From contig JBEKBH010000006.1 of the NCBI GenBank assembly GCA_050015495.1, forward strand, positions 67,661 to 131,660: a DNA stretch of 64,000 bases, in the 5' to 3' direction. Origin of the DNA: Verrucomicrobiia bacterium. GTDB taxonomy: Bacteria > Verrucomicrobiota > Verrucomicrobiia > Palsa-1439. The notes beneath the pieces are model-generated. The model did not search any database, was not told the DNA's origin, and saw nothing but the letters and a program-made list of their open reading frames with translations. The translations under genes and the position numbers were made by a program. Positions 4,741 through 37,389 of this stretch are shown here, in pieces (the stretch's first letter is position 1; each line of letters starts with the position of its first letter).

Positions 4741-4904
4741 GCTGTGTCTGGTGTCAACCGGAAGAACCAATGGTTGCAGGCGACGAGACAATCGCAGGGT
4801 CGGTTCATAAATCTGCGATGACCATGGCCGAATGGCCGACAAACTTGAGAGGAACGACGAACAGTGCTGCGACACAACATTCGTATGTGTCTGGAAATGG
4901 GCGG

Positions 4905-4920
4905 TGGCACCGATACTGCT
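4905..4920 (+). promoter_or_regulatory. Candidate sigma-54 (-24/-12) promoter TGGCAC-N5-CTGCT for the downstream beta-helix/PKD protein gene
   Basis: Exact GG-N10-GC spacing (GG 4906-4907, GC 4918-4919). ATG at 4936 lies about 16 nt downstream of the -12 element. PrsR (sigma-54 activator) is encoded in the same locus. Confidence 0.5.
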
Positions 4921-4935
4921 GTCTTGGGCAGCCAC

Positions 4936-7900: not shown

Positions 7901-7989
7901 TCAGCCCAAGTTCACAATCAGGCGGCGGTACCAACGGCGTCCCGCAGGTTGGCGGTCATTACCACTGGCGGTTCCTGACCGCTCATTAG
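4936..7989 (+). CDS. Large secreted protein. N-terminal signal peptide, right-handed beta-helix (pectate-lyase-like) region, and four C-terminal PKD-like domains.
   Basis: Signal peptide HPVTVCLAVLLMACVNAFG. NxT/GxT-rich beta-helix-like region. Four ~90-aa units with APLTVTFTDTSTG...FGDG... PKD signature. Maximal ORF begins at 4864. The 4936 start was chosen because of the sigma-54 promoter. Confidence 0.75.
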   Translation: MSIVVPTLESVSLRDRSPFIRHPVTVCLAVLLMACVNAFGTSYYVDYSSGADGNSGTSTSSPWQHCPGDPAATGAALAHVPQPGDIFNFRAGTTYTLTGDGSTLYQTGIGLNWSGSSAAPITYACSANWSNGSNTNRVIFTDGYTSKYIAAFYAPGAVANIVISNLEIGPIGGSATLPADPGTGVPSKNGYGVFCGGTFQNITVASCYFHNLGYAFNTIPMDGNSLGQSDGRLSSAGIELYGSGSGVTITNCAFTHMHTAIDLAWQADTSDITITASRFYDFIVWGIDVAGIAGNLDYLTISGNNFSGMGWAYSPPNWTGYNNIPATCSTCWAGSPHQDPIFFRTSDLSVTCGLHNNIYGNEFHTTHPNEVFTADLYLEYAPSVNIYNNLFDNPNAGVSTTGQNIYTNSTGIITTNSWSGGGAPAVEISYELNQGGTIRILNNTAIVNLPGSAQSAALLWGACGCLTPPLTWPNNAYLQVENNLGYSWATTGQQGSLLILGVVTNQYPVAQWTVDYNDWHSPHASDPYFWWNNQPGFNLDGGLAVEQSVGFDAHGITNDPAFVSLAYGATTNSPGNSYQLQSSSPAIGAGVNLSSLGLPGLNTDKDGNPRPASGPWDIGTYEYNTNSVAPSPPVASFSATPTSGTAPLTVTFADTSSGTITDRFWQFGDGNVTNTMATTVIYQYTGAGTDTVQLIVSGPGGSSTNVQANLITVGSTGNTNSVPPPVAAFTVAPTNGTAPLTVTFTDTSTGSITNRLWHFGDGTLTNTLETTMVHQYTAAGTNTVYLRVYGSGGESLDLKPNLVTVSSAGNTNSVPPPVAVFSAAPTSGTAPLTVTFTDTSTGAITDRYWQFGDGNVLDTTATTVIYQYTGPGTDTVQLVVSGPGGSSTNVQANLITVGSAGNTNSVPPPVAAFTAAPTRGTVPLMVTFTDTSTGSITNRLWLFGDGTSANTLSTTTVHQYTTPGTDTVQLVVTGPGGAGVSTQGNLIIVSPSSQSGGGTNGVPQVGGHYHWRFLTAH
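6806..7905. repeat. Tandem intragenic repeats: four PKD-domain units (~270-280 bp each) in ABAB order. The A/A' and B/B' copies are near-identical at DNA level.
   Basis: Motif ggcaacacgaacagcgttccgcc[ag]ccggtggccg recurs at 7086, 7366 and 7636. Protein units alternate between type A (..IYQYTG.GTDTVQL.VSGPGGSSTNVQANLITVGS) and type B (..VHQYT..GT.TV.L.V.G.GG). Confidence 0.7.
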
Positions 7990-8258
7990 CGCCCCTGACA
8001 GAACGCCGGGATCGTGGAAGGCCCGCTCCCGCATGGTCGAGAATATCCGGGGAATATCACGGTGGCGCAGAAACGCTACCCACCCAGAGAAGCCTTCGTA
8101 GGCGCGCGTAGTCTGTTCCAGAAACGGTCTCGGCAAGCAAATAATCTACATCGGTCTCGCCCACGGTGTTATCACAGCACCGCGCGGCGGCGGTGGGAGG
8201 GTGATTTGGAGATTCCCGTTGACAACGACGCGATGCTGAACCGGTTGATGAGGTAGCA

Positions 8259-8864
8259 ATGGGTATCGGAACGATAGAATGGCTTGACCACGCCCGGTCG
8301 CGGGTTGTGACGAGATTGTACACGCTGCTGTTCGCGAGCCAATTCAAGGAATTCGGCGCGGGATCCAGGATTGCGCCGCCGTTTCGCTATTACGGCTTGA
8401 ACCAGATCAGTGTGGGGGAAAAGGTAATCATCAACCGCGACTGTTGGATTCAGGTATTGGGTGGCCGTCAGGACGACACATCCGCGAAGATTGTCATCCG
8501 CGCGCACGCCGGGATTGGAATGGGCGCCAGCATTTCCGCCGCACAGCAGATTACCATTGGCGAGTACGTCCTCTTGGCCCGCAACGTGTACATCTCCGAC
8601 CACGCCCACGCGTACGAGAATCTGGACGTGCCGATCATGCGTCAGGGGATTGACGGTATCGCCCCCGTTTCCATCGGCCGCAATACGTGGCTGGGGGAGA
8701 ATGCGGTCGTCCTGCCCGGTGTCACCATCGGCGAGCATTGCGTCATTGGTGCCAACGCGGTGGTAAATACGTCCATCCCGGATTTTTCCGTCGCGGTCGG
8801 CGCGCCGGCGCGCGTGGTGAAGCAGTTCAATAAGAACAGCGGACGATGGGAACGCGTCGGTTGA
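8259..8864 (+). CDS. Hexapeptide-repeat (LbH) sugar O-acetyltransferase
   Basis: Left-handed beta-helix repeats IGENAVVLPGVTIGEHCVIGANAVV. Confidence 0.75.
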   Translation: MGIGTIEWLDHARSRVVTRLYTLLFASQFKEFGAGSRIAPPFRYYGLNQISVGEKVIINRDCWIQVLGGRQDDTSAKIVIRAHAGIGMGASISAAQQITIGEYVLLARNVYISDHAHAYENLDVPIMRQGIDGIAPVSIGRNTWLGENAVVLPGVTIGEHCVIGANAVVNTSIPDFSVAVGAPARVVKQFNKNSGRWERVG

Positions 8865-8938
8865 CAGCTCGGGGAGCGCCCCGAAATCGAGTGTGCGATC
8901 CGGATGTCTCCTGACAGGCACGACAGGGCGGAAGGCCA

Positions 8939-10390
8939 TTGAGCAAGACACTGAAATCGAGAGCGCTCGGCGCTGTGATGTGGAGCGCGGCCGAGCAATT
9001 CAGTTCGCAGGGCGTGCGGTTTGTCATTGGGATTTTTCTGGCCCGGCTTCTCCTTCCGGAACAGTTTGGTTTGCTGGGAATGATCGCCGTCTTCCTGGGA
9101 GTCGCCCAGGTGTTTGCGAGTTGCGGTTTTGGGCAGGCCCTGATCCAACGACAGGACGCCACCCAATTGGATGAAAGTTCCATCTTCTACGTAAACGTAT
9201 TCCTGGGATTGATCGCCGCACTCGGTCTGTTTCTGGCCGCGCCATGGGTCGCCGCGCTCTACAAGCAGCCTCCGCTGCTATCGCTGACCCGGATCATGGC
9301 GGCGGACGTCTTGATCAACGCGTTCGGGGTTGTGCAAACGGCGCTGCTCACGAAGAAAATGGACTTCAAAACCCAGCTCAAGATCAGCATAACGGCAAAT
9401 TCGGTGTCGGGAGTCGCGGCGGTGTTCCTGGCGATGCGCGGGATGGGTGTGATGAGCCTCGCGGCACAAATCTTAATTGCCGACACGTTGCGGACGGTGA
9501 TGTTGTGGACGTCGCATGTATGGCGGCCGTCGCCGGTGTTCAGCCTCGCTTCGGTTCGCCGGTTGTTTTCCTTCGGATCGCGCATGTTCGCCTCGGGCAT
9601 GCTGTACGTGGTGTTTCAAAATCTCTATCCCTTTACCATCGGCAAGCTGTTTGCTGCGGCGTCCCTCGGTTACTACACTCGGGCCAGTTCGACACAGGAA
9701 ATGGTGTCGTCCAACCTGGTCAACGTGGTGGGGCGGGTTTCGTTTCCGTTGTTTTCGGCGCTGCAACACGACGTGGCAAGCATGAAACGGGCGGTACGGA
9801 AGGCGTTGATGTCCATCGCGTTTGTCAGTTTTCCCGCCCTCATGGGTCTGGGGTGTACCGCGGTGCCGCTGGTGCGGGTGCTGATCACCGACAGGTGGCT
9901 GCCGTCGGCAGGGCTGATTCCCATCTTTTGCGTGGCGGGTGCGGTGACCGTGCTGGATTCCATCCATTTGAACGCGTTGATGGCCTTGGGAAGGTCTGAC
10001 CTGTTTTTCCGTTTGGAGATGATCAAGAAGGGCCTGATCATCTTGGCAATTATCACGACGTATCACTACGGCATTCTCGGACTGGTCTGGGGGCAGGCTT
10101 GCGTGGCTGTGCTCTGCTATTTCATCAACGCGTTCTACTCCGTCCGGCTGTTGTCATACTCGTGGCGAGAGCAATTCGTGGACCTGCTTCCCTATCTGAG
10201 CATCTCCGGGTTGATGGGACTGATCGTGGTGGCGACCAACGTGCTGCTCGGCATAAAGAGTCCCGCGGTATTGTTGTGCGTCCAAATTGCGCTGGGTGGC
10301 GTCGCGTACGCCACCGGGTCCGTCTTGTTGCGTGTCTCGGCGCTGGTCGACACGTGGAAGTTGGTCCAGGAGCGAATGGTTCTTTCGTGA
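8939..10390 (+). CDS. wzx: Wzx-type polysaccharide flippase (MOP superfamily)
   Basis: 12-14 TM helices. N-terminal ...LGAVMWSAAEQFSSQGVRFVIGIFLARLL typical of polysaccharide biosynthesis flippases. Apparent TTG start at 8939 with ggaagg RBS. First ATG is at 8978. Confidence 0.75.
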   Translation: MSKTLKSRALGAVMWSAAEQFSSQGVRFVIGIFLARLLLPEQFGLLGMIAVFLGVAQVFASCGFGQALIQRQDATQLDESSIFYVNVFLGLIAALGLFLAAPWVAALYKQPPLLSLTRIMAADVLINAFGVVQTALLTKKMDFKTQLKISITANSVSGVAAVFLAMRGMGVMSLAAQILIADTLRTVMLWTSHVWRPSPVFSLASVRRLFSFGSRMFASGMLYVVFQNLYPFTIGKLFAAASLGYYTRASSTQEMVSSNLVNVVGRVSFPLFSALQHDVASMKRAVRKALMSIAFVSFPALMGLGCTAVPLVRVLITDRWLPSAGLIPIFCVAGAVTVLDSIHLNALMALGRSDLFFRLEMIKKGLIILAIITTYHYGILGLVWGQACVAVLCYFINAFYSVRLLSYSWREQFVDLLPYLSISGLMGLIVVATNVLLGIKSPAVLLCVQIALGGVAYATGSVLLRVSALVDTWKLVQERMVLS

Positions 10391-10443
10391 CCGCATAACG
10401 CGGTGGGGCGTAACGCGACAAATCGATTGCTTTGGCAGGACAA

Positions 10444-11286
10444 ATGAACGTGGTGGGTCGTCTGGTGAAACTTTCGGTAAGTATCGTGGTCGCGGCGGGT
10501 GACATGGTGATCAGGGGATTGCGCGTTGGCCGGGTGCCAGGGTATTGCGTGGTCATTAACTATCATTCGGTCTCCGACAAGTCCGCACCGTTGTTGCGCA
10601 AGCAATTGGACGCACTATCGCAAATGGCGCGGCCCCTGCGGGCGGCCGTCCCGTCGACTCTGGAAATCGGGGCGCGTTACGTGGCCATAACGGCTGACGA
10701 TGCGTTCTGCAGTTTCACGGAGAACGCCTTACCAGAGCTTTGCACGCGCGGGATACCGGTGACAGTGTTCGTTCCGACGGGGTATGTGGGACGTAAATCA
10801 GCCTGGGACGATTATGGCGGCGAAAACCGCGTCGGGGAATGGGTGGCCACCGCGGAGGACCTCCGTCGTCTGGCCAGTTGGGAAACCGTGGATTTCGGTT
10901 CGCATTGTGCGTCGCACCCGGACCTGCCACGGCTATCGGAGGTGGAAGCCGCCCGAGAACTGCGGGAATCGAAGGCCGCGCTGGAAGCGATGGTGGGACG
11001 CAAAGTTGTCGCCGTGAGCTTCCCCTATGGAAACTATGGTTCGCGGGAATTGAAGCTCGCGGCCGAAGCGGGATACGAATTCTTTTTTGATTCCACGCCG
11101 CAGAGCGTGTCGTCGGCAATGCGGGGAGGTCTCATGGGACGGGTGTCCGTGCAGCCAACCGACTGGGGTATCGAATTCCGGCTCAAGTTGTTGGGCGCAT
11201 ATCGGTGGGTGAGATGGGGCTCGGCCGTCAAGCGGCGCGTGTTGACGTCGCTCGGTCGCCAGCCGATACCGGTGGTGAGAAACTAG
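10444..11286 (+). CDS. Polysaccharide deacetylase (CE4/NodB-homology domain)
   Basis: ...AITADDAF..., HCASHPDL, FPYGNYG motifs. First ATG at 10444 (ORF track start 10432 is TTG). Confidence 0.75.
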   Translation: MNVVGRLVKLSVSIVVAAGDMVIRGLRVGRVPGYCVVINYHSVSDKSAPLLRKQLDALSQMARPLRAAVPSTLEIGARYVAITADDAFCSFTENALPELCTRGIPVTVFVPTGYVGRKSAWDDYGGENRVGEWVATAEDLRRLASWETVDFGSHCASHPDLPRLSEVEAARELRESKAALEAMVGRKVVAVSFPYGNYGSRELKLAAEAGYEFFFDSTPQSVSSAMRGGLMGRVSVQPTDWGIEFRLKLLGAYRWVRWGSAVKRRVLTSLGRQPIPVVRN

Positions 11287-11293
11287 GGGTTCC

Positions 11294-12400
11294 ATGCGCA
11301 GTCAGGTGGAAATTGATCGGGTGACGGCGGCGGAATGGGCCGAACTGTTGGAATTGTTTGTCGACGCCAATGTGTACCAGACCTGGAGTTTCGCCGCGAT
11401 TCGCTGGGGTGAGGGCAATCTGAGCCATGTCGTGCTCAAGCAGGGCGGCGATGTGGTCGGGATTGCGCAGGTCCGGATCGCTTGTGTGCCGGTGGTGGGC
11501 TGTGGAATCGCCTATCTCCGCTGGGGGCCGTTGTGCCACCGGCGGGGACGGGAACTTGATCCCGAAGTTCTGCGAGACATGGGACAGGCGCTCCAGACGG
11601 AATACGTCGAGCGTCGGAGGTTGTTTCTGCGGGTTCTGCCGAATGCATTCATCGGATCGCCCCGTGCCGAATTGTTCCAGACCGAATTCTCCCAGTTCAA
11701 GGCAGAACCCGCCAACAAGGTCAACACGTACCACACCATCGTCGTCGACCTGTCGGGCACGCTCGACGAGTTGCGCAAGCGGCTCGATCAGAAGTGGAGA
11801 AACCAATTGAACCGGGCCGAGAAAAACGGCCTGCAGATCGCCGAGGGGACCGGTATCGAGGAATACCGGGTATTCGCGGCAGTCTACAAGGAAATGTGGG
11901 AACGCAAACGGTTTGATACGTCGGTGGACGTGGACGAGTTTGGCTGCATTCAGGAAGGACTGCCCGAAAGCCAGCGGATGAGGGTGTTGATCTGTCGTCA
12001 GGGCGACACCCCTGTCGCCGGGATTGTTTGTTCCGCCATGGGCGACACCGGAATCTACTTGCTCGGGGCGACCAGCGATGACGGCTTGCAGTCCAAAGGC
12101 GCTTACCTTCTTCAATGGACCATGATCCGCTGGCTCAAAGAACACGGATTTCGCTATTACGATCTGGGGGGAATCGATTCCGCGTCCAATCCAGGTGTCT
12201 ACCATTTCAAGAGCGGCCTTTCGGGAAGCGACGTTCGCCACATGGCCCCATTTGCGGCGTGCAACAGCCTCCTGGGATCCGCGTTCGTGAAGGCGGTCGA
12301 CCTCGTGCGCCAGCGGCGGGGCGGAGATCGTCATGTGGCCCAAAGTCGACCCCAACGCCCGAAGTCGGAACCCCTGCCCGGAACAGAACCTGTCCGCTAG
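11294..12400 (+). CDS. FemAB-related protein (Acetyltransf_6/FemAB fold). Resembles the PEP-CTERM-system-associated FemAB family.
   Basis: C-terminal GIYLLGATSDD...YLLQWTMIRWLKEHGFRYYDLGGI pattern of the FemAB/GNAT-like family. Position right after the deacetylase in the EPS locus. Confidence 0.65.
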   Translation: MRSQVEIDRVTAAEWAELLELFVDANVYQTWSFAAIRWGEGNLSHVVLKQGGDVVGIAQVRIACVPVVGCGIAYLRWGPLCHRRGRELDPEVLRDMGQALQTEYVERRRLFLRVLPNAFIGSPRAELFQTEFSQFKAEPANKVNTYHTIVVDLSGTLDELRKRLDQKWRNQLNRAEKNGLQIAEGTGIEEYRVFAAVYKEMWERKRFDTSVDVDEFGCIQEGLPESQRMRVLICRQGDTPVAGIVCSAMGDTGIYLLGATSDDGLQSKGAYLLQWTMIRWLKEHGFRYYDLGGIDSASNPGVYHFKSGLSGSDVRHMAPFAACNSLLGSAFVKAVDLVRQRRGGDRHVAQSRPQRPKSEPLPGTEPVR

Positions 12401-12443
12401 GCCGGCGAGAAGAATTGAACCTCGGAGTTTCGTCATAGCTGTC

Positions 12444-13409
12444 ATGGATGTATCGGTCATCATTGTGAATTGGAACGCCCGGCGGTATTTGGAGGAATGC
12501 CTGGCCAGCGTGTACGAATCGAGTGCGCCGTCGGTGCCGGAAGTGATTGTCGTGGACAACGCCTCGACGGATGGGTCGCCGGAAATGGTGGAAGAGCGCT
12601 TCCCGGACGTGAAGCTGGTGCGATGTCGAGAGAACCTCGGGTTTGCCAGGGCCAACAATATCGGGATCAAAGAGAGCCAGGGGCGCCATATCGCGTTGGT
12701 CAACTCGGATGTGAAGCTGTTGGGACGGTGTTTGGACACGCTGGCGACGTTTCTGGATCAGAATCCAAAGATCGGGCTGGTGGGTCCGCGGATTCTCAAC
12801 GCGGATTTGACGTTGCAGAGCAGTTGCCGACAATTTCCCAACCCGTGGAACACCTTGTGTTCGGCAACCGGCCTAGCGCGGTTGACGAGCCGCCACAAAG
12901 TTCTCAGCGGCGAACACATGCTGTATTTCCGACATGATCGGGTTCGCCCCGTGGACGTGCTGGTGGGCTGCTTCTGGATGATGCGCCGCGAAGCGTGGGG
13001 GACGGTGGGGGTGCTCGACGAGCAATTCTTCATCTTCGCGGAAGATGTGGACTGGTGCCGACGCTGTTGGAACGCCGGATGGGAGATTGTTTTCTGCCCC
13101 GACGCGCAGGCGATCCATCACCGCGGAGGCAGTTCGGTGAACGACCCCGTCCGGTTCGCGGTGGAACAACAGCGCGCCGTGCTGCGTTACTGGCGGAAAC
13201 ATCACGGGATTCTGGGCCGCCTGTACATGGTGGCCCTCTTGGGTTTCGGACAGCTCCTGCGATATCTCTCGGCGTTCGTCTCGACACTCGTGCGACGGTC
13301 GGCACCGTCAGACGGTCGGCTGCGCATGCGCAAAGCCAGCGCGTGCTTGCGGGCTTCTTTTGGCAGGGATTGCTCCCGGGCGTCGGGGGGCGTGGGAGCA
13401 TCCGGGTGA
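12444..13409 (+). CDS. Glycosyltransferase family 2 (rhamnosyltransferase-like)
   Basis: MDVSVIIVNWNARRYLEECL...VIVVDNASTDGS...VNSDV motifs. ATG 12444 inside the longer 12333 ORF. Confidence 0.8.
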   Translation: MDVSVIIVNWNARRYLEECLASVYESSAPSVPEVIVVDNASTDGSPEMVEERFPDVKLVRCRENLGFARANNIGIKESQGRHIALVNSDVKLLGRCLDTLATFLDQNPKIGLVGPRILNADLTLQSSCRQFPNPWNTLCSATGLARLTSRHKVLSGEHMLYFRHDRVRPVDVLVGCFWMMRREAWGTVGVLDEQFFIFAEDVDWCRRCWNAGWEIVFCPDAQAIHHRGGSSVNDPVRFAVEQQRAVLRYWRKHHGILGRLYMVALLGFGQLLRYLSAFVSTLVRRSAPSDGRLRMRKASACLRASFGRDCSRASGGVGASG

Positions 13410-13420
13410 GCGTGGCTCGA

Positions 13421-14119
13421 ATGAGATTTCAGGATCCGATGAATCGCGCTCTCTCGTATTGGCAGCGACATGGCGTCGCGGCGACCCTCCGCCGCGCGTG
13501 GCTGGGGCTGGGCCGGGTGGTCTGCGGCAATGGGCTCATTCTATTCTCCTGTGATTTGGCGGTGTTGCCGGCGCGGAAGAATGGCCCGATGGATGATCTC
13601 AAATTCGAGCGCAAAACCCGGGAGGCGGACCTGGACGCGCGTGACCGGGAACAGATCGTCAATTTCTGGAACCCGGACGCCACCGGGCGACAGATCACGG
13701 AACGGTTTGCAAAGGGGGCGTCTCTCTGGCTGGTCCGGGCCGAGGGCCAGTTGGCCGGATACGGCTGGACGCTCGTCGCCGACACGATGGAACCCCACTA
13801 CGTTTCGCTGGGACCGGAGGACGTGCATCTTTTCGATTTCCTCGTGTTCCCAGATTTCCGCGGGCGGGGAATCAACCCCGCTCTCGTCGTCCATGTCTTG
13901 GAAACGGTTGCCGGCGAGGGAAAACGCCGGGCGTTGATCGAAGCCGCCGAGTGGAACACCGCGCAATTGTCATCCCTGCGCCGGACACCATTTCAGAAGT
14001 TGGGTGTGGTACGGAAGCGCGGTTTGTTTGGCAAACCGTCGGTGGTGTGGAGTAGCCAGGACCTGCCTCGGCGCGCGGTTGATGATGCGGCGATGAACAA
14101 CGGGAAGGGCCGATCATGA
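13421..14119 (+). CDS. GNAT-family N-acetyltransferase
   Basis: Acetyl-CoA-binding-type segment FDFLVFPDFRGRGINPALVVHVLE. ATG 13421 chosen because the longer 12995 ORF overlaps the upstream GT2. Confidence 0.55.
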   Translation: MRFQDPMNRALSYWQRHGVAATLRRAWLGLGRVVCGNGLILFSCDLAVLPARKNGPMDDLKFERKTREADLDARDREQIVNFWNPDATGRQITERFAKGASLWLVRAEGQLAGYGWTLVADTMEPHYVSLGPEDVHLFDFLVFPDFRGRGINPALVVHVLETVAGEGKRRALIEAAEWNTAQLSSLRRTPFQKLGVVRKRGLFGKPSVVWSSQDLPRRAVDDAAMNNGKGRS

Positions 14120-15039
14120 CGAAACCCCGATTCAGTGTGGTGGTTCCCGTGTACAACCGCGAGCGGCTCGTCGGTCCAACCATTGATTCGGTGCTGGCGC
14201 AGACGTTCACGGATTACGAACTGATCGTGGTTGACGACGGATCGACCGACGGCACGCCTGAGGTGCTGCGATCGTATGGAACGAAGATCAAAGCCGTTCG
14301 TCAGGCGAACCAGGGACCGGAAGTCGCCCGCGGCCGGGGCATCGCCCTGGCGACCGGAGAGTACGTGGCGTTGCTGGACAGCGACGACCTTCTCTGGCCC
14401 CACGCGTTGGAGATCTACGATCGAATCATTCGCGCCTGCCAGTCACCGGGGTTGATCCTGGGCGCCACGACGTACTTCGAAGATGGACAGATCCCGCATC
14501 CCGACGGAGACGGAGCCGGCGACATCGAGGTCTTCCAGTACCGCGACTACATGGCAAAGGACGTGCCGGTCGGCCTGTACGGCAGCAGCGTGGTGACGAA
14601 GAAGTCGGTCTTCGACCAGGCGGGCGGACTGCGCCAGAGTACGCCCACAACATTTCACATGGACATGCTGGATACCATGCTGCGCATCGGGGTTTACGGG
14701 CCGTGCGTGGTGGTGAAGCGGCCCGCGACCATCGCGTATCGGGTGCACAAGACGAATTCCATCCGCGATATCCAGGGAGTGGCCAACGGCGTTTTCCCGA
14801 TTATTGACGCCGAGCGGCGCGGACAGTACCCGGGCGGTCCGTCTCGGCGATTCGAGCGGTACGCGTGCATTGGCGGCGTAGCGTGGTGTTGGTTCAAGTA
14901 CGCGCTGGCGGATCGCCAGATCCGCATTGTTGGCAAATACATGATCCATTGCAGCCCGATGATCGCGGCGGGTGCCCTCAAGAAACTTTGGGGACGCGTA
15001 CGCGGGGCGAGTCGCCCTGTGTGCGTGCCTCGTGGCTAG
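14116..15039 (+). CDS. Glycosyltransferase family 2 (paralog A)
   Basis: FSVVVPVYNRERLVGPTIDSVLAQTFTDYELIVVDDGSTDGT...LDSDD. ATGA start/stop overlap with the upstream GNAT gene. Confidence 0.85.
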   Translation: MTKPRFSVVVPVYNRERLVGPTIDSVLAQTFTDYELIVVDDGSTDGTPEVLRSYGTKIKAVRQANQGPEVARGRGIALATGEYVALLDSDDLLWPHALEIYDRIIRACQSPGLILGATTYFEDGQIPHPDGDGAGDIEVFQYRDYMAKDVPVGLYGSSVVTKKSVFDQAGGLRQSTPTTFHMDMLDTMLRIGVYGPCVVVKRPATIAYRVHKTNSIRDIQGVANGVFPIIDAERRGQYPGGPSRRFERYACIGGVAWCWFKYALADRQIRIVGKYMIHCSPMIAAGALKKLWGRVRGASRPVCVPRG

Positions 15040-15160
15040 AAGACGCAACACAGGGAAACCGGGGTCAGCGAAGTTATGAGCAGCTCATCAGGAAAATTGC
15101 GTCCCGGCGATGTTGTCGAAGTGCGACCGTGGCCGGAGATTCGCGCGACGCTGCATCAGG
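14735..15160. repeat. Copy 1 of a diverged (~85-90% identity) ~425-bp segmental duplication. Covers the GT2-A 3' end, the intergenic region and the start of the downstream gene.
   Basis: Direct alignment by eye with 17478..17910 (e.g. ttcgagcggtacgcgtgcattggcggcgtagcgtggtgttggttcaagtacgcgctgg versus tttgagcgctacgcgtgcattggtggagttgcttggtgttggttcaagtacgcgctgg). Confidence 0.7.
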
Positions 15161-15222
15161 GCCAGGGACAACATAGGGACATAAACACCGGCAATTCCGA
15201 TGCAAAAAGTGAGCCCAGGTAG
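15076..15222 (+). pseudogene. 48-codon remnant of the 5' end of a paralog of the 17825..19183 gene
   Basis: MSSSSGKLRPGDVVEVRPWPEIRATL is near-identical to the N-terminus of the 17825 protein (MSSSLEKLRPGDVVEVRPWPEIRATL). It then diverges and stops. Confidence 0.5.
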
Positions 15223-15231
15223 GACAAGGCA

Positions 15232-16230
15232 ATGAAACCACGGTTCAGTGTGGTGATCCCGGCCTACAACCGGCAGAAGCTCGTCGGTGCAACGATTGAT
15301 TCCGTGCTGGCGCAGACGTTCACGGATTACGAGTTGATCGTGGTGGACGACGGATCGACGGACGGCACGACCGAAGTGCTTCGATCCTACGGGGCGAGAA
15401 TCAGCGTCATCCAGCAAGCAAATCAGGGGCCGGAAGTCGCCCGCAACACGGGAGCCTCCGCGGCGAATGGCGAATACCTCGCGTTTCTGGACAGCGACGA
15501 CCTTCTGCTTCCCTGCGCTTTGGCGACCTACGAGCGCGTCATCCAGGAGTTAGGTTCGCCAGCATTGGTGATTGGAACCGTGACCCATTTCGAGGATGGG
15601 CAGGCCGTGCATGCGGACGCCAGCGCTACCAAGGCCATCGAGTTACTGCGATTTCGTGACTACTTGGCCAAAGATGTGGCCATCAGTCTGTACGGCAGCA
15701 ACGTAGTGATAAAGAGGTCCATTCTCGACCAAGCAGGCGGATTGCGAACAAGCACGCCCACGACGTTTTATTTGGATATCTGGGATATGATGCTCCGCTT
15801 GGGAACCTACGGACCTTGCGTGTTGGTGAGACGGCCGGCGACGGTGGCTTATCGGTTTCACAACACGAACGCCGTTCGCAACGTGGAAGCGATGGTCAAA
15901 GGCATGTCGCGTTTGATCGAGGCCGAGCGGAGAGGACAATACCCGGGCGGGCGATCCCGCAGGTTTGTCCGATATGCCTGCCTTGGTGGCATGTCTTGGA
16001 GTTTGTTCAGCTATGCGCTGAAAAGCCGTCGTCCCAGATTGGGGTTTGGAGCCCTTCTCCGGAACAGTCCGGTGATCTTGGCCGGCGTGATGAAGAAATT
16101 ATGGTGTCGACTTCGCCGAACCAGCTCGGTGTTGCGGCTGCCGGAAGCCTGCGAAACAGAGAGAACGATGAAGAGTGAGAACCCTCCCGGGGGCGGCTTT
16201 GATTCCGTGAAAGTTGCGGACGGGCGCTGA
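15232..16230 (+). CDS. Glycosyltransferase family 2 (paralog B of the 14116 gene)
   Basis: MKPRFSVVIPAYNRQKLVGATIDSVLAQTFTDYELIVVDDGSTDGT. Same architecture and about 65% identity to GT2-A. Confidence 0.85.
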   Translation: MKPRFSVVIPAYNRQKLVGATIDSVLAQTFTDYELIVVDDGSTDGTTEVLRSYGARISVIQQANQGPEVARNTGASAANGEYLAFLDSDDLLLPCALATYERVIQELGSPALVIGTVTHFEDGQAVHADASATKAIELLRFRDYLAKDVAISLYGSNVVIKRSILDQAGGLRTSTPTTFYLDIWDMMLRLGTYGPCVLVRRPATVAYRFHNTNAVRNVEAMVKGMSRLIEAERRGQYPGGRSRRFVRYACLGGMSWSLFSYALKSRRPRLGFGALLRNSPVILAGVMKKLWCRLRRTSSVLRLPEACETERTMKSENPPGGGFDSVKVADGR

Positions 16231-16285
16231 TGATGGGCCGGAAACCGCGTTTTGGCTGCTGCCAATGACAACATCCTGCGCAAAC

Positions 16286-17437
16286 ATGACTGTCTCGGGC
16301 GTGGAATTGATCCAATCGAACCTGAAGAGTCGGTATGTGTTAGTGTGCTCTCGGAAGATTGATGGACGTGTGGCGGCCGGTTGGATGTCGCGTGAACTGG
16401 AAGACTCCGTCTGGGACAACTTTCTTCAGGGGACTCCACTGGGGCATTTTGAGCAGTCGAGCTGGTGGGCACGAGCCAAGCGCATCGAAGGCTGGCGGCC
16501 AATTCGGATGATACTCACGGTGGATGACCAAATCGCCGGGGGCTTCCAAATACTGGCGCGGGACACTCGCTTTGGCGGTGTTGGGCACATTTATAAGGGG
16601 CCTGTGGTTGCGCCCGAAGAACCCGCTTTGCTTGATTTTCTGATCGAACTTGTTGCCTCGGCCTCCAAAGCCAACCATCTGCGGGCGCTGGTAGTCCAAC
16701 CTGCGGACGGGAGCACGATTGAAGGGGCGCGGTTGGCGTACCATCGGTTTTTGCCCAACTATCTTGCCACTGTCATTTCCGCCACGCTGGTTGTGGATCT
16801 CTCTGGTGGGCTGGACGAGATCAAAGGGCGAATGCGTCGAGCCACTTGGTCGCAGATCAGACAAGCCGAGGAGAGAGGGATCACGATACGTGAGGGCGGT
16901 GAACAGGATATCGGGACATTCTTCTCGTTGATGGCAGCGACGTGCCAGCGGCAGCGGACCAGGCCCGCTCCGGCGACAGAATCGGCCATACTGGAGATTT
17001 GGAAGGCGTTTCACCCCCATGATTGTATTCGGCTTTCTTTCGCTCAGTTCGAAGGAAAGTCTATTGCCGGTGCGCTCTGTCTCTGCTTTGGTCAGAGGGT
17101 TGTCGCTTGGAAAAGAGGATGGTCAGGAGAGCATCGCGAGCGGCGTCCCAACCAACTATTGATGTTTGAAGCGATTGAGTGGTCCCATCGTCATGGCTAC
17201 AAGGTATTCGATTTTGGCGGACTAAGCCGTGAGATCGCCGTGACACTGTCGCATGGTGAACCTCTTTCAGAAAGCCAAAAGAATAGCGGTGACTTCTTTC
17301 ATCTTGGTTACGGGGGCAGGCCGGTGTTGTTCTCGAAATCACAGGTCTACATCGACAATTCCTTCGCCCGATTCGCCTATAAGACTGCAGGTACTAACGC
17401 ATGGCTTCGGGCGCTGGTGGGGAACGCGTTGAAATGA
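16286..17437 (+). CDS. FemAB/Acetyltransf_6-like (GNAT-fold) protein
   Basis: C-terminal ...IAGALCLCFGQRVVAWKRGWS...NQLLMFEAIEWSHRHGYKVFDFGGL matches the FemAB/BioF2-like acetyltransferase pattern. Alternative starts at 16265 and 16214. Confidence 0.6.
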   Translation: MTVSGVELIQSNLKSRYVLVCSRKIDGRVAAGWMSRELEDSVWDNFLQGTPLGHFEQSSWWARAKRIEGWRPIRMILTVDDQIAGGFQILARDTRFGGVGHIYKGPVVAPEEPALLDFLIELVASASKANHLRALVVQPADGSTIEGARLAYHRFLPNYLATVISATLVVDLSGGLDEIKGRMRRATWSQIRQAEERGITIREGGEQDIGTFFSLMAATCQRQRTRPAPATESAILEIWKAFHPHDCIRLSFAQFEGKSIAGALCLCFGQRVVAWKRGWSGEHRERRPNQLLMFEAIEWSHRHGYKVFDFGGLSREIAVTLSHGEPLSESQKNSGDFFHLGYGGRPVLFSKSQVYIDNSFARFAYKTAGTNAWLRALVGNALK

Positions 17438-17461
17438 AGACATTCACAGGGATCCAGAGTC

Positions 17462-17797
17462 GTGGCAAAACGGGAGGCCTTTGCCTATCGGGTGCACCAG
17501 ACCAATTTGATCTGTGACATCTCGGGAGTGGCCAACGGTGTGTTCCCGATTATTCGTGCGAAACGGCAAGGGCAATACCCGGGTGGTTCATCACGGCGAT
17601 TTGAGCGCTACGCGTGCATTGGTGGAGTTGCTTGGTGTTGGTTCAAGTACGCGCTGGGAGTGCGCCAGATGCGCGTTATTGGCAAGTACATACTCCATTG
17701 TGGACCAATGATTGTGGCGGGTGCACTGAAGAAAATGTGGGGGCGCATACGCGGGGCCAGTCGCCCCGTGTGCGTGCCTCGTGATTGGGAAACATAA
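17462..17797 (+). pseudogene. C-terminal fragment (last ~105 aa) of a GT2 paralog. Gene remnant.
   Basis: Aligns to residues ~205-307 of GT2-A (GVANGVFPII.A.R.GQYPGG.SRRFERYACIGGVAWCWFKYAL). There is no N-terminal catalytic domain. Confidence 0.55.
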
Positions 17798-17910
17798 CAC
17801 AGGGAAACTGGGGTCAGCGAAGTTATGAGCAGCTCATTAGAAAAATTGCGTCCCGGCGATGTGGTCGAAGTGCGACCGTGGCCGGAGATTCGTGCGACGC
17901 TGGACGAGAA
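17478..17910. repeat. Copy 2 of the ~425-bp segmental duplication (see 14735..15160)
   Basis: See copy 1. Confidence 0.7.
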
Positions 17911-19183
17911 CGGCCTGTCCGAGGGCCTCACGTTCATGCCGGAAATGTTGAAGCATTGCGGTCAACGATTCGTGGTCAGTAAACGAATCACCGGCGCGTA
18001 CGAGAGCGCATTCGGCGGCTCACAAGCCATTCGGGATGTGGTTCTCCTGCGCAACGCGCGATGCGACGGATCCGGCCACAACGCATGTGCGAAAGCATGC
18101 ATCCTGTGCTGGAAACAATCCTGGTTGAAACGGGTGGACAGAAGCGCCGTGGAACAGGCGATTGCCCCGCTGCTCGATCAATCGCCGACAGCGTTTCCTT
18201 ATCAGCTTGCGGACGGACGTTATCGCTGCCAATACGAATTCCCGGCAGCGCTGGGGAGCAGTGTTGTTCAACCCAAAGCGCGCGCGGAAGGGACGGGCCG
18301 GCTCTATCGAATGTCGGTGGATGAGTATGCGGGTTTGCAGCAGGCGGTCGGCGAAACACTCGTCTGCGTGGATGGGCACTGGTGGCGGCGGGTGCGGGCG
18401 TGTTTCTATCGGCCCTTGCTGCCATTTCAAGAATTCCCAGCCAGCTCACGAGCGATTCCGTGGGCGGCCTGGTGGGGAGTCGCGCAGCATGCCGTGCCGT
18501 GCGGCCAACAAGCCAACTCGACGATGAGTTTTCTGATGTTCATCGATGGCGCGGATTATTCCATCGACGCGCTTCGAAAGAAGCCGCGCCAACAGGTGCG
18601 CTGGGCCGAAAGAAAGTTTGTCGTCCACGATCTCGCCGACCGTGACGAATTCAAACGGCAAGCCTTTCCAGTGTACACGGAATTCTATGCCCGGACTCAA
18701 TACTATTACCTGGCGGGACGGTCGAAACGGGAGAATTTCGACCGCTGGGCCGACGCAATTTACGACTACAAGTCTTCGCTCATTCTTGGAGCGTATCGAG
18801 GGCCGCAACTTTGCGCGGTCAGCATTGCGCAGGCGGTTGAGAACACCTTGATTTACTCGACCATCTTTGCCACCGCCGAGGGGTTGCGGGATCACGTATC
18901 GAGTCTTTTATTGCACACCGTAAGAGGCAGGGCGAGGGATGATGGAGGTATCACCCAGGTGTACGCGGGAATGCCCAAGACATCCGAGGCGCACGGGATC
19001 GATGAATTTTCGATGCGGCGCGGGTGCCAGTTGGTGACCAAGCCCGCGTTCATGTGGTTAAATCCCGCCAGCAAGCTGCTGTTGCGCAGCCTGTTTTGGG
19101 GCCAATACGCGCGTTTGCGTGGCGACCAGAACGGGTCGGAGCCGGACTCGGTGAGCTCCGGCGAATCGTCATTAGCGGAATAG
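17825..19183 (+). CDS. Two-domain hypothetical protein. Cys-rich N-terminal domain of unknown function plus a C-terminal Acetyltransf_6/FemAB-like domain.
   Basis: N-terminal KLRPGDVVEVRPWPEI...CDGSGHNACAKACILCW has no family I recognise. C-terminal half has a GNAT/FemAB-like profile (..YYLAGRSKREN..LILGAY...DDGGI..). Confidence 0.5.
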   Translation: MSSSLEKLRPGDVVEVRPWPEIRATLDENGLSEGLTFMPEMLKHCGQRFVVSKRITGAYESAFGGSQAIRDVVLLRNARCDGSGHNACAKACILCWKQSWLKRVDRSAVEQAIAPLLDQSPTAFPYQLADGRYRCQYEFPAALGSSVVQPKARAEGTGRLYRMSVDEYAGLQQAVGETLVCVDGHWWRRVRACFYRPLLPFQEFPASSRAIPWAAWWGVAQHAVPCGQQANSTMSFLMFIDGADYSIDALRKKPRQQVRWAERKFVVHDLADRDEFKRQAFPVYTEFYARTQYYYLAGRSKRENFDRWADAIYDYKSSLILGAYRGPQLCAVSIAQAVENTLIYSTIFATAEGLRDHVSSLLLHTVRGRARDDGGITQVYAGMPKTSEAHGIDEFSMRRGCQLVTKPAFMWLNPASKLLLRSLFWGQYARLRGDQNGSEPDSVSSGESSLAE

Positions 19184-19278: not shown

Positions 19279-20289
19279 ATGATACTGCTACTGGGAGCCA
19301 GCGGTTATATCGGGCAGGCGTTTGCTGCGGAGCTGCGGCGGCGGCGCTATCCGTTCGTCCCGCTCACGCGGATGGCGATTGATTACACCCAGTTCGACAT
19401 CCTGTTCGATTACGTGCGCAAGATGAGGCCGAGCTTCATCATCAACGCGGCGGGATACACCGGCAAACCGAATGTCGACGGGTGCGAATCCGCCCGAGCC
19501 GAGACGCTGGCGGCCAACGCGCTGCTTCCCCAAACCATTGCGCGTGTCTGCCTGGTGACGAACACGCCGTGGGGACACGTGTCCTCGGGATCGATTTACA
19601 ATGGGGCGAAGGTGCTCGATAACGGGGGCACCCGAATCGAAAGCGACCTGAGCCGGCCGGAGACTCGCTGGCTGTTCGAACAGCACCCCGAGAGGTTCTC
19701 CGGGTTTACGGAGTTGGACGAGCCGAACTGTTCGTTCTTAAGGCCGCCCTGCAGTTTCTACAGCGGCACCATTGCCTTGGCGGAAGAAGCGTTGCGGACG
19801 GTCAGGGAATGCTATGTCTGGCGCTGCCGCATCCCGTTCAACGAAGACGATCAGCCGCGGAACTTTCTATCGAAAATCCAGTATTATCCCAAAGTCCACG
19901 ACAGCGTGAACTCGCTTTCCCACCTGGACGATTTCGCGCAAACCTGTCTGAATCTCTGGGAGCGGGGAGCGCCGTTTGGCATCTACAACGTGACCAACCC
20001 CGGCGCGGTCACGACGCGCCAGGTGGTCTCTTTGATTGAGCGGATCTTGAAACCCGGCCGAACGTTCTCGTTTTGGAAGGATGACGACGAATTCTACCGC
20101 GACGGTGCCACGGCGCCTCGCTCCAATTGCATCCTGGATGTCTCGAAAGTCCAGGCCACCGGGGTGCGGATGCGCTCCGTGCACGAGGCTCTTGAAGAAT
20201 CGCTGCGGAGGTGGCACGTCAGCAGCCCCATGACGTGGCCGGTCCGCCGTCCGTTGCAACCTGTTCGCCATCAACCTGTTCACCGCTAA
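19279..20289 (+). CDS. NAD(P)-dependent sugar-nucleotide epimerase/reductase (RmlD-like substrate-binding domain)
   Basis: Rossmann N-terminus MILLLGASGYIGQAF. The YxxxK-type catalytic region could not be fully confirmed. Family-level call only. Confidence 0.7.
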   Translation: MILLLGASGYIGQAFAAELRRRRYPFVPLTRMAIDYTQFDILFDYVRKMRPSFIINAAGYTGKPNVDGCESARAETLAANALLPQTIARVCLVTNTPWGHVSSGSIYNGAKVLDNGGTRIESDLSRPETRWLFEQHPERFSGFTELDEPNCSFLRPPCSFYSGTIALAEEALRTVRECYVWRCRIPFNEDDQPRNFLSKIQYYPKVHDSVNSLSHLDDFAQTCLNLWERGAPFGIYNVTNPGAVTTRQVVSLIERILKPGRTFSFWKDDDEFYRDGATAPRSNCILDVSKVQATGVRMRSVHEALEESLRRWHVSSPMTWPVRRPLQPVRHQPVHR

Positions 20290-37205: not shown

Positions 37206-37238
37206 GGTTCGAGTCGGTGCGAGAATGGATTCGAACCA
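37206..37238 (-). other. tRNA 3'-end-like fragment (canonical T-arm GGTTCGAATCC plus acceptor-like 3' strand) with no matching 5' half. Possible remnant att site.
   Basis: The minus strand reads ..catGGTTCGAATCCattctcgcacc. No complementary acceptor 5' strand was found within 90 nt. Confidence 0.3.
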
Positions 37239-37263
37239 TGGTTCCGTCATCACGGGCGTGTTC

Positions 37264-37277
37264 GGTACCGAACGCGT
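37264..37277. promoter_or_regulatory. 14-bp perfect palindrome GTTCGGTACCGAAC about 115 bp upstream of the LRR gene start. Candidate dimeric regulator binding site.
   Basis: Exact reverse-complement symmetry seen in the sequence. Confidence 0.3.
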
Positions 37278-37389
37278 CCCGAAGTTCTGTAACCTTTTAG
37301 TGAAGGCGAACGTGCGCCGCCAGCGCTCGCTACCCAGTTATCCATCCACGAAGTCCAACAGCCTGCCTCGCTGCGCGGAGAACACCATC

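Follow-up and report, generated by a model that had tools for sequence, protein, structure and literature searches.

A probable recombination scar of diverged glycosyltransferase/D junctions in an exopolysaccharide operon of the PEP-CTERM/exosortase type in a soil Verrucomicrobiae bacterium

The closest described counterparts of the locus considered here are surface-polysaccharide loci, the junctions of which often bear gene fragments. Among these, the cps locus is a recombination hotspot producing new serotypes (PMC5850285), and the K locus is an exchangeable unit (PMC13043062). We present the analysis of a comparable region in an uncultured soil Verrucomicrobiae bacterium, in which two versions of the junction between a family-2 glycosyltransferase (GT2) gene and a downstream gene, D, bracket a second GT2 gene, GT2-B, and a FemAB-like gene, FemAB2. 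The window (the whole stretch of 64,000 nucleotides that was analysed) was compared with 11 related loci, designated below by L and a number, and all genomes compared are metagenome-derived. We propose that the structure is very probably a recombination scar, formed by the joining of diverged GT2/D junctions in the variable part of an exopolysaccharide (EPS) operon.

The operon and its intact genes

The locus is a PEP-CTERM/exosortase EPS operon carried on a single strand, which includes genes for a flippase, a deacetylase, FemAB1, the GT2s, D, an RmlD-like protein, BBP2_2 and the exosortase EpsH. Its assignment follows from the presence in the same operon of an exosortase (PF09721, Exosortase_EpsH) and the associated outer-membrane protein (PF10082, BBP2_2), both immediately 3' of D and the RmlD-like gene; the TIGR03014/03016 matches at the locus are weak. 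A scan of positions 13900-18100 recovered neither sigma-70-type promoter-like sites nor plus-strand terminator-like sites between genes, and tRNA and Rfam scans of the whole window were empty. A single weak minus-strand terminator-like match lies inside GT2-A. The GT2-B/FemAB2 region is the variable, glycosyltransferase-rich part of this operon (Table 1).

Table 1. Coordinates of the genes, remnants and repeat copies of the region in the window
Feature	Position	Strand	Description
GT2-A	14116..15039	+	Intact family-2 glycosyltransferase, 307 aa; PF00535 E 2e-29
Repeat copy 1	14729..15155	+	GT2-A codons ~205-307, 36-bp spacer, D codons 1-26
D remnant (pseudogene)	15076..15222	+	48-codon ORF, D-like at first 26-28 codons only
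GT2-B	15232..16230	+	Intact GT2 paralogue, 332 aa, first cassette gene; PF00535 E 6e-33
FemAB2	16286..17437	+	FemAB/Acetyltransf_6-type (FemX-like) transferase, second cassette gene; PF13480 E 9e-20, PF02388 E 4e-18
Spacer after FemAB2	17438..17477	+	Common to L007 and L044
Repeat copy 2	17478..17904	+	GT2 C-terminal fragment, spacer, start of intact D
GT2 C-terminal fragment (pseudogene)	17478..17797, in open frame 17462-17797	+	Equivalent to GT2-A aa ~205-307
Gene-conversion tract, window lineage	17728..17904	+	Fragment end, spacer and D codons 1-26, copy-1-type
Gene D	17825..19183	+	Intact, 452 aa; N-terminal beta-rich domain and C-terminal tandem-GNAT domain predicted by model

GT2-A and GT2-B are both members of the GT2 family (103 and 115 bits, respectively, against a PF00535 cutoff of 23.3). 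GT2-A is of the type found directly upstream of D in relatives without the cassette (A-type), and shares 94% amino-acid identity with its counterpart in L007 (omega 0.056-0.09) and 86% with the D-adjoining GT2 of L037. GT2-B is 92% identical at the protein level to its counterparts in L007 and L041, and FemAB2 is 88-93% identical to those in L007, L041, L020 and L044. FemAB2 belongs to the families defined by PF13480 (71.8 bits, cutoff 22) and PF02388 (65.7 bits, cutoff 24). Against the TIGR03019 equivalog (FemAB family, XrtA/PEP-CTERM), for which the cutoff is 260, FemAB2 scores 40.9 bits and FemAB1 30.7; the two are related to this family but lie outside the equivalog.

Gene D has no match in Pfam or NCBIfam, and a search of its sequence against the PDB found nothing. 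Foldseek comparison of its AlphaFold model (pLDDT 81, with values >90 over most of residues 160-436) with the PDB recovered Sbb17 (E 1.5e-8), the MprF C-terminal domain, FemX and ATE1, with a probability of 1.00 and E values of 1.5e-8 to 1e-6 against 9wqw, 5vrv, 6snr and 7z6a. These confident matches to solved members of the tandem-GNAT aminoacyl-transferase fold point to a FemX/MprF-like C-terminal domain in D, its tie to FemX being by predicted structure only. PF13480 is matched by 4 of 25 D family members, and profile-profile comparison of the D and FemAB2 families yielded an hhalign probability of 0.3%, with a D alignment that mixed N-terminal-only and C-terminal-only homologues. Thus, FemAB2 by its Pfam matches and D by its model resemble the FemX/FemAB and MprF transferases; however, both fall far under the equivalog thresholds for FemX and TIGR03019, and D has an extra, uncharacterised N-terminal domain. 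Given a FemX/MprF-like C-terminal domain in D, GT2-A/D and GT2-B/FemAB2 would be parallel modules, and we flag D as a candidate unannotated family of FemX-fold enzymes.

Repeated junctions, stubs and gene conversion

MAFFT alignment and ungapped comparison identified a direct repeat of 427 bp, co-linear and free of indels at an offset of 2749, with 356/427 identical positions (83%); the repeat finder reported the portion 14729-15028 versus 17478-17777 (81%, spacing 2749). Identity is 80% in the GT2 C-terminal coding part (250/311), rises to 86% across the 36-bp spacer and to 94% over D codons 1-26 (75/80), and drops to ~25% beyond the block. The two copies of a ~425-bp block claimed in an earlier note on this DNA are therefore real and run without gaps through non-coding DNA into D, but their identity is lower than the 85-90% given there. 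Being highest outside the GT2 coding part, the similarity is not confined to the conserved glycosyltransferase domain; it is such a confinement that the note had named as overturning its reading. The GT2 and FemAB-like genes that it placed between the copies are confirmed by their Pfam matches (PF00535; PF13480/PF02388); the decayed remnant of D at copy 1 is present as well. The GT2 fragment devoid of an N-terminal half also exists, although it belongs to copy 2 and does not lie ahead of it, as had been stated.

The tail of the D remnant (15156-15222) bears no relation to D; from about 15177 onward L007 has it too, read in a different frame. In L007, the D stub retains D aa 1-44 and aa ~296-319 ahead of this shared tail, as against aa 1-26 in the window, which lacks 117 bp corresponding to L007 5092-5208; repeat copy 1 itself is orthologous to L007 4644-5091 at about 91%. 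The GT2 fragment, 79% identical in amino acids to the GT2-A C-terminus, lacks the catalytic N-terminal half, and its open frame yields no match in Pfam. It covers aa ~127-307 in L007, L041 and L020, of which the last two carry it frameshifted, and aa ~205-307 in the window, where a 267-bp deletion starts at the 3' end of the spacer after FemAB2; in L044 it is entirely deleted. Because the lengths of the stubs vary among relatives, the fragment is frameshifted or deleted, and the frame of the D-stub tail differs, both stubs act as pseudogenes. A functional GT2 fragment was considered and rejected: frameshift or deletion in relatives counts against it, and its 111-codon open frame is no sign of function, as spurious ORFs of 100-200 codons abound on both strands at 60% GC. 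Between orthologues of the fragment, omega is 0.40-0.70, which does not stand clearly above the 0.38-0.63 of the intact cassette genes, and therefore selection statistics alone do not prove the fragment dead. Likewise, the low GC3 of the stubs (0.59 versus 0.68-0.78) is ambiguous, since the intact FemAB2 is also low (0.60). The original repeat spanned at least 700 bp plus a further part of D, and its size of 427 bp is secondary, with the ends in the window set by later lineage-specific deletions.

Neither a mobile element nor target-site duplication accounts for the insert. The only family-matching ORFs in it are GT2-B and FemAB2, and the repeat finder recovered no inverted repeats at its boundaries, which speaks against a transposon-, IS- or integron-borne cassette; the flanking repeat consists of 427 bp of gene sequence and not of a duplicated target site.

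Identities of blocks along the repeat and site patterns in the quartet formed by the two window copies and the two L007 copies show that the copies have exchanged patches by gene conversion, and that in the window the spacer and D codons 1-26 were replaced by sequence from the dead D stub. In the tract 17728-17904, 23 sites differ in L007 copy 2 only and 0 show the orthology pattern, a pattern displayed by 19 sites in the block just before it; window-L007 identity is 77-79% in the tract as against 96-99% in its flanks, and L044 has an L007-type D start. Such patches account for the unevenness of identity between the copies. No more than two tracts were detected, measuring about 80-180 bp.

Relatives, divergence and origin

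The plain arrangement of a GT2 gene followed by D was observed in six relatives, in three distinct arrangements (L037, L008/L017, L009/L018 and L019), and GT2-B with FemAB2 lies between GT2 and D in L007, L041, L020 and L044. The insert is hence variably present between conserved flanks, as is typical of cassette exchange. Between the window and L007, dS is 0.089 for GT2-B, 0.056 for FemAB2 and 0.090 for D, versus 0.28 for GT2-A, 0.24 for RmlD and 0.30 for BBP2; between the window and L041, it is 0.13 for GT2-B and 0.17 for FemAB2, versus 0.42-0.65 for the backbone. Thus, in the same genome pairs, cassette dS (0.06-0.17) is discordant with backbone dS (0.19-0.65) over a few genes in three genomes, and the lower values fit a lateral exchange of the cassette between related lineages. 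L041 combines the cassette and the right-hand fragment with GT2X (53% identical in amino acids) where GT2-A sits, and with no D stub; its fragment matches copy 1 of the window (86%) better than it does copy 2 (77%). The older arrangement could be either the L041 type or the window/L007 type, with extra conversions required under either. Among the related loci we found no full-length copy-2-type GT2 adjoining FemAB2 and no donor of the cassette: outside the clade, the closest homologues of FemAB2 share 56-61% identity with it and lie in different EPS loci, and the two whose context was examined (L042 and L043) have no GT2-B neighbor.

Most differences between the two copies are synonymous, with a dS of 0.72 (0.95 in the unconverted block) and an omega of 0.165 (0.10); the copies therefore diverged as functional genes before they were joined. 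This dS equals or exceeds that between GT2-A and its L037 orthologue (0.63-0.66); with the copies as deeply separated as the orthologues of single-copy genomes, and at such low omega, a recent in-place segmental duplication was rejected. In the phylogenetic tree, the window and L007 fragments group together at 100% within the A-type GT2s, while GT2-B falls in a separate clade (100% bootstrap) as an older paralogue. The earlier note had asked for this phylogeny and for the presence of the insert in relatives as checks on an old recombination or duplication that brought in an extra module. Both agree with that proposal, as does the co-linearity of the two blocks, for which the note had asked for a self-comparison, and the dS and omega between the copies favor recombination over duplication.

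The comparisons show the anatomy of the repeat, the presence or absence of the insert among relatives, the successive erosion of the stubs, the conversion tracts and a divergence older than the joining; how and in what order the founding events took place, and any effect on EPS structure, we infer as follows. Ancestrally, one A-type GT2 gene would have been followed directly by D, a predicted FemX-fold transferase, a state that persists in several relatives. In the window clade, the GT2-B/FemAB2 cassette lies between two versions of this junction, the left one retaining GT2 in full (GT2-A) and D in truncated form, and the right one a truncated GT2 and all of D. At joining, these versions were already ~20% diverged, nearly all of it synonymous, pointing to different locus variants (homeologues) that may have been brought together by illegitimate or unequal recombination, or by single-crossover integration. 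The redundant halves would then have become pseudogenes and shrunk through independent deletions in each lineage, with the repeat copies trading short patches by gene conversion, including that from the dead D stub into the spacer and the live gene. As a result, the locus would gain a second 'sugar transferase + FemX-like transferase' module, which presumably adds or modifies one polysaccharide residue, and the serotype-like EPS diversification suggested in the earlier note would be a plausible outcome.

We consider it unlikely that the GT2-D pair was instead duplicated in place, in tandem, in an ancestor, with both pairs functional for long before GT2-B/FemAB2 arrived and a GT2 and a D were lost. 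Long functional coexistence would also produce the low omega between the copies, and L007 shows that the repeated unit once covered at least GT2 aa 127-307 and D to aa ~319, such that the whole pair is possible; yet two intact GT2-D pairs occur in none of the 11 related loci. Moreover, the between-copy dS is at least as large as that between GT2-A and L037, although L037 and remoter relatives have single pairs, which would entail several independent losses, and a duplication node before the L037 split lacks support in the tree (22-57% at the relevant nodes). The direct orientation of the repeats, the exact-match runs of 29, 28 and 25 bp between the copies and the at least two conversions, one from the stub into the live D, raise the prospect of a working device, wherein RecA-mediated crossover pops out the cassette to leave a hybrid intact GT2-A/D, exactly the L037-type arrangement, and the D stub is a silent donor for the D N-terminus. 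This is very improbable: every contig with the exact D or GT2-A protein either has the cassette or is too short to tell, and the pop-out junction was not seen among them; the repeats shrink by deletion, with one side gone in L044, the opposite of a maintained device; and two conversions over such divergence fit passive concerted evolution. We hold it to be a long shot that the repeats and stubs constitute a low-frequency switch, with cassette excision restoring GT2-A/D and the stub rewriting the D N-terminus, which if true would let a single locus supply a population with two EPS chemotypes as well as variant alleles of D.

The source organism is uncultured, and in one sample (SRR33405628) the region is split over two contigs (L003 and L006), as might be expected had two strain variants been joined through shared GT2 sequence during metagenome assembly. 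However, the contigs break within GT2-B and FemAB2 and not at the repeat; positions 14000-18200 are 100.000% identical in ERZ27249977 and SRR7027980, independent metagenome assemblies from different projects; and the same architecture with orthologous junctions recurs in L007 (a separately assembled MAG, on an 808-kb contig), L041 and L020, rendering mis-assembly extremely improbable. There is next to no chance that the similarity is simply that of the conserved GT2 domain of paralogues, without any duplication event: GT2-A and GT2-B are indeed paralogous (60% amino-acid and 73% nucleotide identity), but the repeat crosses the stop codon and then the 36-bp spacer without a gap and enters D, where identity peaks, and the fragment is devoid of the catalytic N-terminal half.

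Comparison with other recombining systems

A scar of joined junctions has the topology of Campbell-type single-crossover integration, namely a complete left and a truncated right part, the insert, and a truncated left and a complete right part, with direct, co-linear repeats. In contrast to such integration, we see no evidence here of a circular donor, an integrase or an att site, and of the two halves of the structure L041 has just the right one; unequal crossover of two locus variants yields the same topology. The patchy, lineage-specific homogenisation of the copies, including that of a live gene by a dead copy, is reminiscent of concerted evolution and pseudogene-templated conversion, but nothing points to a dedicated variation system like those of pilE/pilS and vlsE.

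Like the pneumococcal cps, the Klebsiella K locus and the E. coli capsule/O-antigen loci, this operon has conserved flanks around a variable block of glycosyltransferase and modifying-enzyme genes, modules gained and lost by recombination between related strains, and discordant divergence along the locus. It differs from them in its host, an uncultured soil Verrucomicrobiae bacterium with an exosortase/PEP-CTERM locus known from sequence alone, in having no IS elements or other mobile genes, and in that its scar is a homeologous junction pair with gene conversion ongoing. The scar is an ordinary trace of the diversification of EPS clusters by recombination and involves no new mechanism. Nevertheless, it documents a series of scar erosion across relatives along with conversion from a pseudogene into a live paralogue, and would provide an example, from an uncultured soil phylum, of an EPS operon gaining a putative 'sugar + amino-acyl' decoration module. 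By analogy, these parallels suggest that the diversification seen in the capsule loci of pathogens is also at work in the exosortase-type EPS loci of environmental Verrucomicrobia.

Repeat anatomy and the genes of the operon

The region is part of a long plus-strand operon (see the table), in which the genes 3' of that for an RmlD-like reductase code for a BBP2_2 outer-membrane protein, the exosortase EpsH, an acyl-CoA ligase-like protein and a carrier protein; it is a PEP-CTERM/exosortase-type EPS locus. The nearest genome match is an uncultured Verrucomicrobiae MAG. Upstream of the operon, a 1041-aa protein with a beta-helix region (4864-7989) contains four tandem 276-nt (92-aa) PKD-domain repeats at 6829-7956. 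Elsewhere in the window, an 813-aa BspA-type leucine-rich-repeat protein (37225-39666) has internal DNA repeats on a 69-nt unit (37600-38928).

Genes and gene remnants of the region (window coordinates)
Feature	Position	Strand	Description
Polysaccharide deacetylase	10432-11286	+	
FemAB1	11294-12400	+	
GT2 upstream of GNAT	about 12444-13409	+	
GNAT	about 13439-14119	+	
GT2-A	14116-15039	+	family-2 glycosyltransferase
D stub	15076-15222	+	48-codon ORF
GT2-B	15232-16230	+	family-2 glycosyltransferase
FemAB2	16286-17437	+	FemAB/Acetyltransf_6 protein
GT2 fragment	17462-17797	+	111-codon ORF
Gene D	17825-19183	+	
RmlD-like reductase	19279-20289	+	

The cassette of GT2-B and FemAB2 lies between two direct repeats, copy 1 joining the 3' end of GT2-A to the D stub and copy 2 joining the GT2 fragment to live D. 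A repeat finder paired 14729-15028 with 17478-17777, which alignment and ungapped comparison at an offset of 2749 enlarged to 14729-15155 versus 17478-17904. The earlier note had described a block running from the GT2 gene through the spacer into D, and this is correct (co-linear, ungapped, 427 bp) except for its identity, put slightly optimistically at 85-90%: 356 of 427 positions are identical (83%), with zero indels. From 80% in the GT2 coding part, identity rises to 86% over the 36-bp spacer and 94% over the first 26 codons of D, the contrast between the GT2 coding part and the rest being significant (Fisher p = 0.006); beyond both ends it falls to background. Local mis-assembly is ruled out, since two independent assemblies agree at 100% of the positions in 14000-18200. 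In ORF, repeat and Pfam scans, neither transposase nor integrase genes, nor terminal inverted repeats, were found in association with the insert.

Related loci with and without the cassette

Eleven informative loci (labeled L), obtained by searching with D and looking up its homologues, differ in whether they carry the insert, a comparison that the earlier note had proposed. The cassette is absent in L037, L008/L017, L009/L018 and L019, where one A-type GT2 of 305-306 aa (in L037, 86% aa identical to GT2-A) is directly followed by D, and present in L007, L041, L020 and L044. In L019, a 32-aa GT2 C-terminal scrap (6814-6909) lies upstream of the complete GT2, and D (8001-9312) has an apparent frameshift near aa 217; this scar suggests that recombination has recurred at the GT2/D junction.

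L007 displays the order GT2-A, D stub, GT2-B, FemAB2, GT2 fragment (aa 129-306) and D, the last with 93% identity to the window's D; its stub comprises aa 1-44, then aa ~296-319, and then a tail as in the window. In this locus GT2-B and FemAB2 are fused in a single 694-aa open reading frame (5264-7348) because 112 bp flanked by two GCTGCC microhomologies (window equivalent 16143-16254) have been deleted, and with them the C-terminal tail of GT2-B and the spacer between the two genes. L041 lacks the D stub and has the order GT2X, GT2-B, FemAB2, a frameshifted GT2 fragment (aa 127-307) and D. GT2X (6185-7195), which occupies the GT2-A position and overlaps GT2-B by 4 bp, is a third GT2 paralogue that shares 53% aa identity with each of GT2-A and GT2-B. 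The right half of L020 is as in L041. In L044, whose D has 95% identity to that of the window, the GT2 fragment is wholly gone and FemAB2 is separated from D by 37 bp (1106-1142), in which a strong Shine-Dalgarno-like AAGGAGG closely precedes the start of D.

Junction alignment with L007 shows that the window has lost 267 bp from the GT2 fragment (L007 7388-7654) and, from the D stub, 117 bp (L007 5092-5208). Given these losses, the repeat was at first larger, with at least about 700 bp and a large part of D, and its 427-bp extent today is the outcome of later lineage-specific deletions. The tail of the D stub encodes no conserved peptide, since its reading frame in the window is not that in L007.

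Divergence, conversion and exchange

Over the 102 GT2 codons common to the copies, the Nei-Gojobori method gave a dS of 0.72 and omega of 0.165 between copies 1 and 2 (0.95 and 0.10 in the conversion-free block), against 0.43 and 0.056 for GT2-A between the window and L007, and 0.66 and 0.11 between GT2-A and its L037 orthologue. The inter-copy divergence is thus as deep as that from single-copy genomes, and these values imply that most of it arose while both copies were functional GT2 genes. In a neighbor-joining tree, the A-type group contains a 100% clade of the GT2 fragments from the window and L007, and the GT2-B sequences cluster apart from that group, also at 100%. A union of two locus variants that had diverged beforehand fits better than a duplication in place that later decayed; a duplication far back in time, with the two copies coexisting for long, appears quite unlikely. 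The earlier reading of a recombination or duplication is thus supported, with dS, omega and the tree favoring homeologous recombination over a fresh duplication. That reading is further refined in that the repeat size is secondary and gene-conversion patches are present.

These patches emerge from site patterns in the quartet formed by copies 1 and 2 of the window (w1, w2) and of L007 (L7_1, L7_2), which fall into three sharply distinct blocks. In 17478-17650, 19 sites reflect orthology (w1 = L7_1, w2 = L7_2) and 0 within-genome similarity. The next ~77 bp have 13 sites peculiar to w2, L007 copy 2 having turned copy-1-like, and from about 17728 to 17904, 23 sites are peculiar to L7_2, the window's copy 2 having turned copy-1-like. 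Block identities are consistent with this, and window-L007 identity is 77-79% across precisely this last block and 96-99% in the flanks. Since the D start of L044 is of the L007 type, the change is polarized to the window lineage: there, live D took over the spacer and codons 1-26 from the dead D stub, which accounts for the two copies being most alike beyond the GT2 coding part.

Between the window and L007, dS is 0.089 for GT2-B, 0.056 for FemAB2 and 0.090 for D, against backbone values of 0.28 for GT2-A, 0.24 for RmlD, 0.30 for BBP2 and 0.19-0.26 further downstream; between the window and L041, it is 0.13 for GT2-B and 0.17 for FemAB2, against 0.42-0.65 for the backbone. From this small sample, the cassette therefore seems to have been shared more recently than the genes around it, as would be expected under lateral exchange among related lineages. 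The left flank (10386-14119) is mosaic too: L007 is without the deacetylase, FemAB1 and GNAT genes, L041 has all three, and the upstream GT2 common to the window and L007 is only 79% identical in nucleotides. FemAB2 homologues did not lead to an origin of the cassette: the next are 56-61% identical, and the two with inspected neighborhoods, L042 and L043, belong to different EPS loci in which GT2-B is not adjacent. In these two distant loci (L042 7001-10335; L043 7001-11449), the genes after a FemAB2-like gene are another FemAB gene and one for a ~312-aa protein with zero Pfam matches. In length and contig the L043 protein agrees with P0030, which is homologous to the C-terminal domain of D; for the L042 protein, length is the sole basis for assuming a link to D. 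These loci hint at a recurrent partnership between such FemX-fold enzymes.

Gene products and comparison with known loci

By sequence, GT2-A and GT2-B are ordinary family-2 glycosyltransferases, and FemAB2 falls far short of the equivalog cutoffs of TIGR03019 and FemX. Gene D, which matches no Pfam or NCBIfam family, belongs to an unannotated family, 4 of 25 members of which match PF13480. Its AlphaFold model (pLDDT 81) matches the tandem-GNAT aminoacyl-tRNA-dependent transferases Sbb17, the MprF C-terminal domain, FemX and ATE1, and predicts a two-domain protein with a FemX/MprF-like tandem GNAT at the C-terminus. The N-terminal domain (~105 aa, beta-rich, with conserved Cys/His residues) is likewise N-terminal in 300-370-aa proteins of Actinomycetes, Bradyrhizobium, Pirellulaceae and Vicinamibacteria. 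The fold matches of D and the family of FemAB2 suggest that GT2-A/D and GT2-B/FemAB2 are parallel pairs of a glycosyltransferase and a FemX-like transferase; we infer that a second such decoration step on the polymer may have been gained via the cassette.

Junction remnants such as the two stubs are common in capsule and O-antigen loci. The topology of the scar is the same as that of a single-crossover integration product, and unequal crossover between locus variants yields the same topology; with L041 having the right half alone, both are candidate founding mechanisms. The repeat alignment, the two assemblies and the relatives bear out the earlier observation overall, and the feature is real, but ordinary in kind: conserved flanks around a variable module, along with discordant divergence, make up the pattern known for capsule and O-antigen loci (PMC5850285; PMC13043062).
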